A stretch of DNA of 64,000 nt. It comes from Candidatus Hodarchaeota archaeon. Lineage in GTDB: Archaea > Asgardarchaeota > Lokiarchaeia > Sigyniarchaeales > SOKP01. A program made the translations under genes and the position numbers. Positions 5,596-37,418 of the stretch are shown here, piece after piece; positions within the stretch are counted from its first letter, which is position 1, and each line of letters starts with the position of its first letter. The notes under the pieces are model-generated. The model was not told the origin of the DNA. It ran no database searches and was given only the letters and a program-made list of their open reading frames with translations. The stretch is taken from NCBI GenBank assembly GCA_048886685.1, contig JBHLKM010000002.1:71532-135531 (forward strand), in the 5' to 3' direction.

Positions 5596-5958
5596 TTATT
5601 TATCATTTTGCAATGATTTCTTATGAGCCCATTCCATTAAAGGCATCATTGCCTTCCTAACCTCGATTCCATCTTGAGTTAACGAATACTCTACTTTTGG
5701 TGGAATTTCGGGATATATCTCTCTCTTTATTAAGTCTGCTTTATTTAACTCTTTTAGTCTATCTGAAAGTGATTTGGGACTGATACCCTTTATGTTTTTT
5801 AAAATTTCATTAAACCTTATCTTTTTAAAATTACTGATTGTACCAATAATTGCTAATGCCCATTTCTTACTAATAATATTAATAATTCCTTCTACTGGAC
5901 AAAAGCAAAATTCGAGCTCTTCTGTATTTTCACAATTTATCTCAGTAACTTTTTTAAT
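5596..5958 (-). CDS. HxlR (MarR/DUF24) winged-helix transcriptional regulator with non-canonical ATT start
   Basis: Hand translation: (I)KKVTEINCENTEELEFCFCPVEGIINIISKKWALAII...RFNEILKNIKGISPKSLSDRLKEL...IYPEIPPKVEYSLTQDG...LMEWA; no in-frame ATG/GTG/TTG before the C-terminal helix. Confidence 0.85.
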   Translation of the reverse strand: MKKVTEINCENTEELEFCFCPVEGIINIISKKWALAIIGTISNFKKIRFNEILKNIKGISPKSLSDRLKELNKADLIKREIYPEIPPKVEYSLTQDGIEVRKAMMPLMEWAHKKSLQNDK

Positions 5959-6029
5959 AGTATCTCACTATTTTACTACTTAATATAGAATAAAACACTT
6001 AACAACTTAAATACTTTATCATCTATATT

Positions 6030-6048: not shown

Positions 6049-6063
6049 TTGAAGGTGATAAAA

Positions 6064-6213
6064 ATATCTGAGGAATCTCATCAAACCACGAAAATTCAGA
6101 TCCAACCTGAGCAAGAAACTTGTTCTTGTTGTTGTATGGGTCAAGAAAATGTAGACTTTAAAAAATCTGAACAAGATCTAGTAATTCAACCCCAAAGTGA
6201 ATTAAACAAGTGA
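6064..6213 (+). CDS. Small Cys-cluster protein, about 49 aa (CSCCC); start ambiguous (ATA 6064, GTG 6055 or TTG 6049)
   Basis: GGTGA SD at 6054-6058; (M)SEESHQTTKIQIQPEQETCSCCCMGQENVDFKKSEQDLVIQPQSELNK*. Confidence 0.55.
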   Translation: MSEESHQTTKIQIQPEQETCSCCCMGQENVDFKKSEQDLVIQPQSELNK

Positions 6214-9473: not shown

Positions 9474-10586
9474 TTATGTTTGGGACAATAGTTCAATTAG
9501 AGCTCTAGGGATTTCTTTATAATCATTTACGGCATAAAACTTCCCTCGACCAGCCTTAGCTATTTCCTGGCATGTTGTAATACCCTGAGTCGCATCATTT
9601 TCTGCTGGCATTCCTATAACATGTAGTTTTGGATATTTCTTAGCAATTTCAACTGGATCTCCTCCTCTGTTGAAATTACCATCAGAGATTAGAATTCCGA
9701 AACGACTCTTCCTACTTTCCCTAGTTTTGTTCAACTCTTTTAATCCTTTTTCTAAACCAATTTCGATATTTGTAAAGCCAACTGCTTCTGAATCTAAAAT
9801 TTCGTCAATAATATTAATAACTGATTTTTTTTGATTAATTTTTTTTAAGATCATTGCTGTTGAATTAAATAATATTATAGCATAATCCTCTTTTTCTAAA
9901 TTGTAAGCTAACACAGAGCTAGTAAGGGCTGCATTCAATAATAACCGACCATACATGCTTCCACTTGTATCTAATATTAACACTACTTTTCGTTTTTGAC
10001 GCTTTCTTACTACTCCATATATATCTTTATAATTCAAACTTTTTTCATAAATTTTTAAAGGATTATGTTGGATAGTCTCATCTAAACTAAATTCAGGCAT
10101 ACCAATTTTGTAAAAAGGAACAGTTTTCTTGAATTGACCTCTTATTCCTTTACTAGTTATTTTTAATGATAATTTTAAAATACTTTGACGAGCTAAACGT
10201 CTAAAAATTGCTTTATATTTGGGCGATATTGGGCGCCTAATGAAAAAGTAAATTTCTGGCATAAAATCCCCTGATTCTCTTGCCTTTTGCGAGAAAAACT
10301 CAACTCCTTCTTCTGTGTCCAGAATATCTGTTGCTGCATACACATTCGCTTTAAGTAAACCCATTATTGCTTCAAGGTTCTTATGTTGTATTGCCAAGTA
10401 TGTCATATTTTTGATAGTCTGATAATCAAGAGTGTTGGAAAGATGCTTATAATAATCCGGTTTCTTTCTTTTTTTCCGAATTATTTCATACTCTAAGATT
10501 TCTTTATCCAGTCGACTTTCAGTAAGTCTTACATGCAGTCTCTTCTCAATCTCGTCGGATTCCTCCTCAGAGAAATCATCGATTAT
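9474..10586 (-). CDS. vWA-domain protein, MoxR partner; probably starts at ATA 10586 rather than ATG 10406
   Basis: MIDAS motif LDTSGSM, GFTNI, ISDG; frame open 60 further codons up to an ATA overlapping the moxR stop. Confidence 0.8.
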   Translation of the reverse strand: MIDDFSEEESDEIEKRLHVRLTESRLDKEILEYEIIRKKRKKPDYYKHLSNTLDYQTIKNMTYLAIQHKNLEAIMGLLKANVYAATDILDTEEGVEFFSQKARESGDFMPEIYFFIRRPISPKYKAIFRRLARQSILKLSLKITSKGIRGQFKKTVPFYKIGMPEFSLDETIQHNPLKIYEKSLNYKDIYGVVRKRQKRKVVLILDTSGSMYGRLLLNAALTSSVLAYNLEKEDYAIILFNSTAMILKKINQKKSVINIIDEILDSEAVGFTNIEIGLEKGLKELNKTRESRKSRFGILISDGNFNRGGDPVEIAKKYPKLHVIGMPAENDATQGITTCQEIAKAGRGKFYAVNDYKEIPRALIELLSQT

Positions 10587-11482
10587 TGAAAATCCGATTT
10601 GTTTAATACAGCTAATACAATGTTAGTTATAATTTCTTTCTTAGATTGTGTTAATCCGTCTTCTAATTCAATTTTATTATGTAAAGACATTACTGCTGCT
10701 TCTACCCAATTATTTGTACTGCTAGTATTTTCATATTGATTTATCAATGTAGCCATGTCTATCGCACCTCTAATAGAACTTCCTCTACGAATTGCTGTAC
10801 TGTTTCTAGTCGCTTGAATTATCTTTTGAGATAGAGTTGCTATTTTTTCGGCACTCAACGCTGTTGTGTGATCTAAATCAGCTTCTTGTTTGATAATAAG
10901 GATTTCTTCTTCAGGTTGTTGATAAGAAAGATTTATCCATATAAATCTATCCTTTAATGCTTCTCCTAAGACAGTAACTCCAACATGAGCTGCTGGATTT
11001 TGCGTTGCGACTACAAAAAAATCTTTATGAGCCTTAATTGTTTTCAATTTGGGTATTTCTAAGATACCCTCATCTAAAGCGGTAAGTAATGAGTTTTGGG
11101 TGTTCTCTGGCATTCTATTAATTTCATTTATAAACAAACATCCTCCATTTAACATCGCTAAAGCTAATGGACCGTATTTATAAGATTCTTCATTATATCC
11201 TTTTGCAATGACAAGAGGAGGTTCAAAATAACCAACGAGGTTATGAGGTAATAATTCCTCACTACAGTCAACCCTATAAAAATTTGAATCATTAGTACTA
11301 TAATATTTAGCAATTGCTCTAGCTAGTGTAGTCTTGCCTACTCCTACATTCCCTTCTAACAATATATTCTTACCTACTGAATGAGCTAAAACAATTTGTT
11401 TTAGTTCTTCCGTTCTACCTATGATTTTAAATTTTTCCTTTATTTCAGTGATTATACTGGTCGTATCAACCATAATTTTCAA
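10583..11482 (-). CDS. MoxR-family AAA+ ATPase
   Basis: Walker A LEGNVGVGKT, Walker B LFINEINR, ATQNP, EALKDRF, SIRG. Confidence 0.9.
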   Translation of the reverse strand: MKIMVDTTSIITEIKEKFKIIGRTEELKQIVLAHSVGKNILLEGNVGVGKTTLARAIAKYYSTNDSNFYRVDCSEELLPHNLVGYFEPPLVIAKGYNEESYKYGPLALAMLNGGCLFINEINRMPENTQNSLLTALDEGILEIPKLKTIKAHKDFFVVATQNPAAHVGVTVLGEALKDRFIWINLSYQQPEEEILIIKQEADLDHTTALSAEKIATLSQKIIQATRNSTAIRRGSSIRGAIDMATLINQYENTSSTNNWVEAAVMSLHNKIELEDGLTQSKKEIITNIVLAVLNKSDFQ

Positions 11483-11746
11483 AATTAAACTTTTCTAAAA
11501 TAATTTACTATTTGAATAGTTGGTTTTCATATTATGATAGATCTATTAAGTACTTATCAAGAAATAATAAATATTTAAATATTTACATTTTTCCGTCGAG
11601 AGTGCATAGTTCTCTTGTTCTTTAATAAAAAACTTTAAAAATTATGCATGCTTATAACTATAGAGAGAAAAAAATCATTTATTTTCACTTTATAACTACA
11701 GCTTATTCTATAATCTCAATTGCTAGAAGAAAATAAAAGAAAAAAA

Positions 11747-29019: not shown

Positions 29020-29105
29020 ATGTTTTATAAGAGATAAACGATAAAACTTTAAGTCATTAATTTCTTAATCTTATTAGATTTACCTCAACTTTAAGGTGAA
29101 CTAAA

Positions 29106-29498
29106 ATATACTCAGATAAAGTTATGGAACACTTTAGAAATCCCAGGAATATGGGGGAAATGAAGGATGCGGATGCTTTTGGGGAGGTAGGTAATCCTAA
29201 CTGCGGAGATTTAATGACTATTTATATCAAAATTAAGGAAGAGAACGGAAAAGAGATAATCGATGAAATTTCTTTTCAAACTTTCGGTTGTGCTGCAGCT
29301 ATCGCAACTTCTTCAATGGTTACTGAAATGGCAAAGGGAAAGACATTAGATGAAGCTATGGAAATAACTAGAGCAGATGTGGCTGAAAATTTAGATGGTT
29401 TGCCTCCTATAAAAATGCATTGTAGCAATTTAGCTGCTGATGGTTTACATGATGCTATTAAGAAATATCGTAAAGATAAAAAGGCTAGCAATCCATAA
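29106..29498 (+). CDS. iscU: Fe-S cluster scaffold IscU/NifU-N (copy 1), probable ATA start at 29106
   Basis: (M)YSDKVMEHFRNPRN, GNPNCGD, FGCAAAIA, LPPIKMHCS. Confidence 0.93.
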   Translation: MYSDKVMEHFRNPRNMGEMKDADAFGEVGNPNCGDLMTIYIKIKEENGKEIIDEISFQTFGCAAAIATSSMVTEMAKGKTLDEAMEITRADVAENLDGLPPIKMHCSNLAADGLHDAIKKYRKDKKASNP

Positions 29499-30869: not shown

Positions 30870-31616
30870 TCAGAATAATGCATAAACTCTTGTTTTTTCT
30901 AGCCCATTCACAAATTTAGAAATTTTATATTGTAAACAATTATTATTTTGAAGAATTTTTATAGCCCAATTAGGAATATAGTTGTTGAATTTTACTTCCA
31001 TAATACAAACTCCTTTAGGGATAACAAATTTTGATCCTCCACCAAAATTTAGATCAAGATTATAATTTCTTACCATCACATTTGTGTCAAAAGTCAATCT
31101 AAAAGTTTTCTCAAGTTTTGATATAAATGGTTGTCTTTTATAGGAAACAATGCAAGCAGGTTTTAAATTACACTTTTTATAGAGAAACCAAATTTCATTT
31201 AGTGAATTTTTATCTTGAGCAGATGCTTTATCATAAAAACTGAGAGCTTCACTATTATTTTCATCCAAAATTCTTAAAGCACTATCAAGCGGAACAATAA
31301 CTCTTCTTTTTGCGACATTATCATTTATCTTCTTTTTAATTTCAATAAAAGCAAATTCATTCTTAACTTTAGTAAAATCAGGGTAATACCTAATCCTTAA
31401 TTTGTGTCTTATTGCGACTCCATTTATTTTTTCAAGAAATGAATGATGGAAATTAGAATCAAAATATAAACTTCTTACTTCATAATCATAATTATTTATA
31501 ACATGAGGATCTAATCTCATAAAAGGACGAATATAATCTTTTATTCTATCACGTTCTTTTAAGGAGATTTGATATTTTATTTCAAATCGGTTGAAGTATT
31601 TTTGAAATTTCTGGAT
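30870..31616 (-). CDS. VTC-domain (polyphosphate polymerase-like, CYTH fold) protein, probable ATC start at 31616
   Basis: (M)QKFQKYFNRFEIKY, SLYFD, KLRIRYY, IEIKKK, YKRQ, RLTFD, MEVKF, SKF. Confidence 0.88.
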   Translation of the reverse strand: MQKFQKYFNRFEIKYQISLKERDRIKDYIRPFMRLDPHVINNYDYEVRSLYFDSNFHHSFLEKINGVAIRHKLRIRYYPDFTKVKNEFAFIEIKKKINDNVAKRRVIVPLDSALRILDENNSEALSFYDKASAQDKNSLNEIWFLYKKCNLKPACIVSYKRQPFISKLEKTFRLTFDTNVMVRNYNLDLNFGGGSKFVIPKGVCIMEVKFNNYIPNWAIKILQNNNCLQYKISKFVNGLEKTRVYALF

Positions 31617-34330: not shown

Positions 34331-34541
34331 GTATAGTCCTTTATAATTTTAAAATTTTAAAATATTTTAGATATTAAAAAATTGTCCTTGAAACTAATTT
34401 ATTTTATCTTAACTTTTATAAATTTCTAATCAATTTACACAAAATCTACAAATAAAATAATATAAAAAATTTTCAAACTATAAACAAAATGTATATTTAC
34501 TCAACAGAGTATTCTATCATGATGATTAAAGGTGATTACAA

Positions 34542-37418
34542 ATAGAAACAGAGTCAATTGAAAAAGTTAAGATAAAGCTTGGTGGAATGACATGTGCAAA
34601 TTGTGCTTTTAAAATTGAAAATAAGTTAAAGGGATTAAAAGGTGTAAGCAGTTCAGTAGTTAATTTTGCTAGTGAAGAAGCAACTGTTGAATATAATCCC
34701 AACACGACAAATATTAATGATTTTAATCAAGCTATTCGAGATTTAGGATATAAAGCTACGTTAGCGAAGATTGATCTCAAAGTAATTGATTCAATTACAG
34801 AAAATAATTTTAACGATTTGGTTAATTCTGTAAAACAAATTGAAGGAATCCATGACATTAGGGGCAATTATAACGCAAATAAATTATTTATTGAATTTAA
34901 TGAATTAAAATTAGATGAAAATAGAATTATTACTAGCATTAAGAAATTAGGTTTCAAAATTGAGAAAACTGCTGGCGTAATAGATAAAGAAATTGAGCAG
35001 CATAAAAAAGAGATGAATTATCGTCTTCGAATTCTTGGAATCTCTTTAATTTTTACATTTATTATTACACCAATTAGTTGGTTTGTAGCAGAATCCTTTG
35101 CAAGAAATTTAATACTATTTTTCCTTGCGGTTTTTAATTATTCAGTTGCAGGTTCGTTTTTCTTAATAGGGGCTTACAAATCTCTTAAAAATAAATCAAC
35201 CAACATGGATGTATTGGTTGCTTTAGGAACAACAACAGCATTAGTATACTCCATTTTAACAACATTTCGAATTGAAGGGAAGACCTTCTATGAAGCAATG
35301 TCAATGATCTTATCTTTTCTTTTGGTAGGAAAGTATTTTGAACATAAAACAAAAGGTCAAACATCTGAAGCTATTAAGAAATTGATTGGTTTACAACCAA
35401 AAACAGCAACATTATTAAAAAGTGGTCAAGAAATAGAGATACCTATTGAAGAAATCGAAGTAGGTGACATATTATTAGTAAGACCAGGTGAAAAAATACC
35501 TGTTGATGGTAAAGTAATCAAGGGAAAGACCAAAGTAGATGAGTCTATGATTACAGGAGAAAGTAGATATATCAAGAAAGAAATTGAGAGTGAAGTAATT
35601 GGTGCGACAGTAAATCAGACCGGGTTGATTCAAATTCAAACTGAAAAAGTAGGAAAGGACACTCTTTTATTTCAAATTATTAATTTTGTAAAAGAAGCTC
35701 AAAGTAAAAAAGCTGCAAAACAACAGTTAGCAGATAAAGTTAGCAATTATTTTGTTCCTATTGTGGTTCTTATTGCTGTAGGTGCATTTCTTTATTGGTA
35801 CTTTATTGCACAAATAGGATTAGAATTATCATTATTAGTTTTTACTTCTATAGTTGTTATATCATGTCCATGTGCTCTTGGTTTGGCAATTCCGACAGCT
35901 GTAATGGTAGGAACTGGTAAAGGTGCTGAAAATGGTATATTATTAAAGGGAGGAGATTCTCTTGAAGCAATAAATACAATTAATACTATAGTTTTTGATA
36001 AGACTGGAACACTAACTGTTGGAAAACCCAGAGTTTCGGTAATATATACTGAAAAGGAATTAGAAGGCCAAGGTTATGATGAGAATGAATTGTTGCTTTT
36101 TGCGGGGAGTGCTGAAATGGGATCTGAACATCCACTTGGTAAGGCTATTATTGAAGAAGCAAACCAACGGGGATTAAATCTTGAAACGCCTACTGATTTT
36201 GATGCTATTCCAGGTAAAGGAATTAGAACTTTTGTTAAAAATAAGGCAATTTTAATTGGTAATGAAAAATTGATATTAGATTACCAAATCTCTTTAGACG
36301 CTTATAAGAGTAAGCATAATGAATTTCAACAACAAGGGATAACAACCATATTAATAAGTATTGAAAATAAAATCAGAGGAATTATTGGAATATCAGACAA
36401 ACTTAAGGATCAGGCTCCTTATGCATTAAATAAGTTGCGAGAAAGAGGATTAGACATTTATATGATTACTGGTGATAATAAACAAACTGCTTATAGCATT
36501 GGTCGAATGCTAGAAATAGATGAAGATCATATTTTAGCAGAAGTATTGCCAAATGATAAAGCGATAACAATACAGAAGCTTCAAGAATCAAGTGATCATA
36601 AAATTGTTGGCATGGTAGGAGATGGTATTAACGATGCTCCTGCTTTAGCGCAAGCAGATGTCGGGATTGCGATAGGATCTGGAACTGATGTAGCAATTGA
36701 AACAGCAGATATTGTATTGATGAGGGGTGACTTGCGTAATGTTGTCTCGGCTATTAATCTATCAAAAAAAACATATAAAAAAATGATTACAAATCTTTTT
36801 TGGGCATTTATTTATAATCTTATTGGAATTCCCATTGCTGCAGGAATCTTATATTATGCTACAGGGTTCTTTTTACCACCTTATTTAGCAGCAATTTTTA
36901 TGGCATCAAGTTCGGTTTCAGTAGTAACTAATGCTTTATTTCTAAAGAAGTATGAACCTAAAACACCTCAACAAATTGAAGAAGAAAGATTATTAATTTC
37001 TCAAGAAAAAGTGACAGATCCAGTATGTGGAATGGAACTAGATCCAAGGCGAGCAATTGAATACGAATATAATGATAAAATTTATCATTTCTGTAATCCT
37101 AACTGTGAAGCTCACTTCAAAAGAGATCCTGAAAGATTCAAAAATTACGATGCTATGGATCCAAAATTAATGCAAATGAAAAGTCCTGATGAAAGTGGAA
37201 AGGATGTAATTAAAAATGAAAATATTCAAAAAAAAGAGGAGGATAAAAAAATGGGTAAATTAAAATGTGTGGAGTGTGGATTAGAACAAGAACTTCCAAT
37301 GCATTGTGGACAAGCAATGCATAAAGAAGGTGATCAATTAGTCTGCTGGATGGGTGCTAGTTGTGGTACTCAACCAATTCCAGAACATCATGGTAAACCT
37401 ATGGAAGTTCTAGAATAG
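34542..37418 (+). CDS. copA: Cu(I)-translocating P1B-type ATPase with YHS/TRASH domain and C-terminal Cys/His domain; probable ATA start at 34542
   Basis: GMTCANC HMA domain, [26 protein letters not shown] and MASSS motifs, DPVCGM...FCNPNC, tail KCVECG...MHCG...CWMGASCG...HHG. Confidence 0.93.

Follow-up and report, generated by a model that had tools for sequence, protein, structure and literature searches.

Probable Shine–Dalgarno-directed initiation at AUA, AUU and AUC codons in a lokiarchaeial genome, with an HxlR-family regulator as one case

Initiation at AUU and AUA codons directed by a Shine–Dalgarno (SD) sequence has been described in bacteria for infC and pcnB of E. coli and for infC, cvfC1, ccpN and citZ of S. 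aureus, and in the latter species such starts yield ~10% of the output of AUG (PMC13009471). Among archaea, ribosome profiling of Haloferax volcanii placed ~30% of putative alternative initiation sites at near-cognate codons; the authors left these aside so as to reduce false positives (PMC7261190). A full-text literature search returned no account of AUA, AUU or AUC (collectively AUH; ATH in DNA) starts in Asgard archaea. The alternative initiators of NCBI translation table 11 include ATT, ATC, ATA and CTG, so that the codons considered here are listed, but the table only permits them and gives no frequency, spacing rule or lineage. The lokiarchaeial genome described below resembles the bacterial cases in that a near-cognate start stands behind a well-spaced strong SD, is conserved among orthologues, swaps with AUG in evolution and is often found at the head of regulator genes. 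By contrast, in bacteria only a handful of genes per genome are involved and they are checked by IF3, whereas here ~60–100 genes appear to be concerned, in an archaeon with the eukaryote-type factors aIF1, aIF1A and aIF2. Haloferax is archaeal too, but its sites are putative alternative ones rather than the only starts of full-length conserved genes. Sequence comparison thus supports regarding the ATH starts as what would be a new, large-scale variant of known SD-directed near-cognate initiation.

The window, i.e. the whole stretch of 64,000 nucleotides that was analysed (C2:71532-135531), belongs to a metagenome-assembled genome (MAG; G000) of 4.42 Mb in 47 contigs, with 30.9% GC and contamination rated at 8.4%, whose genes include those for Ras-like GTPases and Nre proteins. 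These genes, and the nearest database homologues, which carry the labels 'Promethearchaeota' or 'Lokiarchaeia', indicate an Asgard archaeon of Loki type. Unless a contig is named, coordinates are those of the window. The sequence-only reading had pointed to an intact HxlR frame without a canonical start codon before its last helix, and this description holds. The stop-to-stop frame on the minus strand (5596-5964) comprises 122 codons, reaches an ATG, GTG or TTG only at codon 106, within the last helix (MMPLMEW), and the gene is free of frameshifts and internal stops. Its product matches the Pfam family HxlR (PF01638) with an E-value of 5.5e-23 and 81.1 bits against a curated cut-off of 20.8, residues 30-116 covering profile positions 1-86 of 91, nearly the entire profile. 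The placement of the proposed start was also borne out when coordinates were checked: AGTGA occupies 5969-5965 and, after 6 nt, ATT follows at 5958-5956. The TGA within AGTGA is itself the in-frame stop that bounds the open reading frame (ORF). The features are as follows.

5596-5958, minus strand: coding sequence of an HxlR-family winged-helix regulator, 120 aa plus TAA, with a probable ATT start (Pfam, orthologues, dN/dS, public gene call)
5956-5958, minus strand: probable ATT start codon of HxlR (aligned codons of orthologues)
5965-5969, minus strand: degenerate SD AGTGA, 6 nt 5' of the ATT (GGTGA or CGTGA at the same place in orthologues)

A lone ATH codon after a four-of-five match to the SD carries little weight at 31% GC. 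Furthermore, a genome scan of sites in which GTGA is preceded by a base other than G, with spacings displaced by 3 nt, detected no ATH enrichment behind them, so the SD alone is no proof of the start of the window copy. Since that copy has a mismatched SD of just this kind, the case for it rests on its orthologues. None that was close could be found in the genomes of 40 relatives, where the best match was 47% identical; however, a metagenome scan recovered six (L063-L068) from independent marine-sediment assemblies, with 67-80% amino acid identity. The sequence-only reading had proposed aligning orthologue N-termini as a check, and this alignment places ATT, ATA and ATG at one and the same codon. 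The 5' regions of the six loci and the window align without gaps, and in all seven sequences the SD ends exactly 6 nt before that codon. The SD reads GGTGA in five of the six orthologues and CGTGA in the remaining one; the codon is ATT in the window, L065, L066 and L067, ATA in L063 and L064, and ATG in L068, the most distant of the six. In the copies with ATT or ATA, no canonical start precedes the winged helix. All the orthologues begin at this codon, are 118-129 aa long and retain the Cys at residue 9. Pairwise dN/dS is 0.07-0.25, also where neither lineage of a pair has a canonical start; for the first 24 codons, those pairs with a computable dS give ~0.2-0.4. HxlR therefore combines the absence of a usable canonical start with an SD at canonical spacing and a codon that is either kept or swapped with AUG. 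Taken together, the conserved SD at a fixed distance of 6 nt, the aligned ATT/ATA/ATG codons and the low dN/dS argue that ATT 5958 is the start of HxlR. The gene is very probably intact and expressed, with translation from AUU at 5958 as one instance of a genus-wide habit.

Other explanations of the HxlR frame account for these observations less well. A start at a different non-canonical codon further inside, for instance ATA 5940 (codon 9 of the frame), might be considered since ATH codons are common and two of them occur in the frame before the CFCP motif. However, in most orthologues codon 9 encodes a residue other than Ile, and no SD precedes it, whereas only the third codon after the TGA is ATT, ATA or ATG throughout, with the SD at fixed spacing; moreover, since the Cys after codon 9 is conserved, it is probably translated. 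We consider such an inner start quite unlikely. Decay of the gene, in which an original ATG start would have become ATT through AT-biased mutation and the gene would yield no protein, would suit the low GC content, the degenerate SD of the window copy and the lack of a close orthologue in the 40 relatives. Against decay, L063-L067, which come from other metagenome assemblies, have no canonical start either and yet retain ATT or ATA downstream of the SD, purifying selection on the protein is evident between lineages that all lack such a start, and the reading frame is undamaged; a pseudogene is accordingly very improbable.

Even smaller probabilities attach to artefact and to recoding. The genome is a MAG in many contigs with some estimated contamination, which could raise the suspicion that the true codon is ATG and was misread or misassembled, but ATT or ATA stands at this codon in independent assemblies, copA, VTC and aIF1 (below) likewise have ATH across many genomes, and the third base may be A, T or C, contrary to what a single systematic error would produce. 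We therefore give hardly any credence to an error. Readthrough or frameshifting from an upstream canonical start would find a parallel in two other genes that carry an in-frame ATG just 5' of the bounding TGA (C5:87630 and C10:19539). At HxlR, however, TAG and TGA are adjacent directly 5' of the frame with a TAA further upstream in the same frame, the short upstream frames that begin with ATG, GTG or TTG all end in stops, and the upstream gene ends 340 nt away, so that recoding is extremely unlikely. As for the two other genes, both ATH-start candidates in G000, they read ATG CTA GAT AGG TGA ... ATT and ATG TGA AGA ATA, respectively, and their in-frame ATG codons are probably due to chance or represent tiny upstream ORFs overlapping the SD. 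Initiation at ATT 5958 thus remains the preferred reading.

The same geometry of SD, spacing and ATH codon had been noticed at three further genes of the window, and it indeed recurs at iscU1 (6 nt, ATA), the VTC gene (7 nt, ATC) and copA (6 nt, ATA).

29106-29498, plus strand: iscU1 coding sequence, probable ATA start 6 nt after GGTGA (29095-29099); NifU_N match
30870-31616, minus strand: VTC-domain coding sequence, putative ATC start 7 nt after GGTG (31627-31624); Pfam and orthologues
34542-37418, plus strand: coding sequence of a CopA-type P-type ATPase, putative ATA start 6 nt after GGTGA (34531-34535); orthologue alignment

For iscU1, the Pfam NifU_N match begins at residue 4 of the stop-to-stop frame, and an ATG six codons downstream of the ATA is a weaker alternative start. 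The Pfam VTC domain begins 23 codons before the first canonical start of its gene. The VTC orthologue of genome G022 also lacks a canonical start and has GGTG, 7 nt and ATC, while the remaining orthologues have ATG or GTG. At copA, the 92% identical orthologue in G017 has ATG at the codon aligned with ATA here, and in G007 and G016 an ATA follows GGTG and the GMTCxxC motif is reached without a canonical start. Thus, in both copA and VTC of sister species, ATG and ATA or ATC replace one another at aligned codons.

Across the MAG, 3612 non-overlapping ORFs of at least 100 codons were considered. The first canonical start lies at least 25 codons into the frame in 195 of them, about half of which score as coding upstream of that start, and hexamer coding scores give ~97 ORFs with coding sequence before the first canonical start. 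BLAST against paralogues splits the ORFs with late canonical starts into two groups, namely, gene fragments together with genes containing an in-frame TGA, probably selenoproteins, and ~25-30 genes in which the Met of a paralogue maps to the 5' end of the ORF, sometimes opposite ATT or ATA. Counting all of the ~97 ORFs as ATH starts was rejected, as some belong to the former group. We also scanned the genome from GGTG sites irrespective of ORF annotation. An ORF was counted by its first codon if it comprised 120 codons or more and no canonical codon stood upstream in frame; where the first codon was non-canonical, the next 6 codons had to be free of canonical ones as well. ATH sites number 26 at 6 nt and 36 at 7 nt after GGTG, compared with 2-11 at other spacings, and their share of non-canonical first codons is 62/94 at 6-7 nt versus 61/485 elsewhere (Fisher p = 8e-26); the other non-canonical codons dip at 6-7 nt. 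At this distance the start codons are ATG (41), TTG (32), GTG (6), ATA (26), ATT (25) and ATC (11), i.e. 62 ATH-headed long ORFs without a canonical start against 79 with one, so that, at the optimal distance from GGTG, ~40% of starts are ATH. Canonical starts (AUG, UUG and GUG) likewise peak at 6-7 nt, although more broadly (5-11 nt), and the SDs of ATH genes are no more extended than those of canonical genes. A narrower range is expected if a weak codon needs ideal geometry.

Pfam searches with 20 ATH candidates gave matches for 15, and in 11 of the 15 the domain starts upstream of the first canonical codon; none contradicts an ATH start. The 11 genes include those for an XPD-type helicase, a ThiF protein, two roadblock proteins, a response regulator, a CoA-binding protein, a 3HCDH protein, CheR and an alpha/beta hydrolase. 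The HxlR orthologue alignment and the genome-wide spacing test place the pattern far beyond chance. About 60 genes behind GGTG, and perhaps ~100 in all, would accordingly start at AUA, AUU or AUC. The earlier suggestion that the organism routinely initiates at these codons is therefore supported as regards initiation by three independent lines of evidence (ATH codons conserved together with the SD, enrichment at 6-7 nt and Pfam domains upstream of the canonical codon), but 'routinely' has to be read as ~1.5-3% of genes. The relaxed start-codon selection that it further proposed remains an inference.

The sequence-only reading also recommended a look at the initiator tRNA and at aIF1. The former appears ordinary: the tRNA (C30:10443-10546) combines a CAU anticodon with an A1:U72 pair, its anticodon stem contains three G:C pairs, and the intron of its gene is 25 nt long. 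It was detected by ARAGORN in intron mode; a simple pattern for the anticodon arm of an initiator tRNA gave no match in the genome. Without introns ARAGORN gave 14 tRNAs and in intron mode only 30-33, because many tRNA genes carry introns; one intron-mode call, a candidate tRNA-Pyl(CTA), may be spurious. As a search of the MAG for a 16S rRNA gene found none, the anti-SD sequence is assumed. The most economical explanation would be as follows. The HxlR mRNA probably begins ~25 nt before the start, downstream of a TATA-like element, with a leader that carries the SD (GGUGA in relatives and AGUGA in the window). Pairing of the SD with the 3' end of 16S rRNA would position the P site over the codon 6 nt downstream, and the ordinary Met-tRNAi (CAU) would there read AUU, or AUH in general, with a third-base mismatch. 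By analogy with S. aureus, the weak AUH codon would demand optimal spacing and give lower output than AUG. This would mean that an archaeon with eukaryote-type factors accepts weak AUH codons on a large scale through bacterial-style SD positioning.

The aIF1 gene, in turn, itself seems to start with ATT.

C33:8614-8940 of G000, minus strand: aIF1 (SUI1) gene, putative ATT start behind GGTTGTGA; conservation in the genus

Its first canonical codon falls inside the SUI1 domain, so aIF1 must start earlier. The ATT, which is the third codon, is kept in all 21 members of the genus seen (loci among L224-L253). In genus g5 the corresponding start is ATA (both of two members), and in genera g2, g9, g10 and g11 it is ATG, TTG or GTG. 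Like infC, aIF1 is thus a fidelity-factor gene with a conserved near-cognate start. We compared the ATH signal with that in parts of other genomes. In 400 kb of G005, from the same genus, the signal is present (6 ATH at 7 nt). G037, a member of another family (genus g9) with 31% GC and ATG as its aIF1 start, served as a negative control and yielded 0 ATH against 15 canonical starts in 400 kb (p = 0.0014 versus this genome). The signal is therefore not produced by AT-richness alone. The result for 400 kb of G031, also from another family (genus g2, aIF1 start TTG), is ambiguous, and in 200 kb of G029 (genus g5, aIF1 start ATA) a suggestive signal was obtained (p = 0.009). As a hypothesis, ATH use would track the start codon of aIF1 in these very few, related genomes, which are not independent samples. 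Because the genera with AUU or AUA at aIF1 (this genus and g5) appear to tolerate AUH starts genome-wide and G037 with ATG shows none, start-codon stringency could tentatively be viewed as a lineage-specific, evolvable setting in Lokiarchaeia that is set through aIF1, although we hold this to be doubtful. If true, aIF1 would form a feedback loop resembling those of eIF1 and IF3 in the closest archaeal relatives of eukaryotes. A genus using ATH starts would also provide a natural setting in which to study how the fidelity of start-codon choice is adjusted.

Such starts also bear on gene annotation. Public versions of the HxlR orthologues 85-92 aa in length begin inside the winged helix (P0045, P0052, P0076 and P0090) and appear to have been shortened by gene calling that rejected the true ATH start. 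By contrast, a public call of 120 aa (P0001) has the same extent as HxlR here and already begins at ATT. Annotation pipelines thus partly cope with ATH starts, and the expectation that standard gene callers would miss or truncate such genes applies to the shortened orthologues but not to P0001. Gene finders restricted to ATG, GTG and TTG would shorten or miss 1.5-3% of proteins in such Asgard genomes, among them regulators, the XPD-type helicase, the ThiF/E1-like enzyme, roadblock proteins and aIF1. Truncated sequences would consequently be carried into comparative studies and work on eukaryogenesis.

Upstream of HxlR, two further features were recognized.

6007-6018, minus strand: TAAAGTATTTAA, candidate TATA/BRE promoter element, identical in the window and the six orthologous loci
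6049-6213, plus strand: divergent small Cys-rich gene of 49-54 aa with a CSCCC motif, conserved beside HxlR

The 12-mer lies at -60 to -49 from the HxlR start codon, and the flanking intergenic DNA varies among the loci. It is likely a TATA/BRE element, which would put the transcript start near -25, and may be common to the divergent gene pair. The Cys-rich gene adjoins HxlR in five orthologous loci, with 38-87% amino acid identity, and a Pfam search with it gave no match. Its start is either TTG 6049 or ATA 6064, the latter 6 nt after GGTG (6054-6057) and replaced by ATG in L066 and L067. HxlR/DUF24-type winged helix-turn-helix regulators have N-terminal sensing cysteines. The HxlR protein described here likewise combines the full domain with an N-terminal Cys cluster (C9, C18 and C20) and a divergent small partner gene, but differs in that the partner is an unannotated Cys-rich protein. 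The latter is likely a target or partner of the regulator.

Two additional observations concern other genes of the genome. Adjacent ORFs split by a single in-frame TGA occur in G000 at C6:216694-218649, C11:121577-123481 and C2:317945-319945, their paralogues are fused at C4:66390-68396 and C19:38484-40538, and ARAGORN finds a tRNA-Sec(TCA); the split pairs are probably selenocysteine genes. Finally, a VWA-domain ORF on the minus strand of the window (9474-10622) reaches its first canonical start only at codon 73, and at its 5' end it shares 40 nt with the upstream ORF (10583-11494). This two-gene pair is also found on C1, where the VWA partner is 833 aa long.
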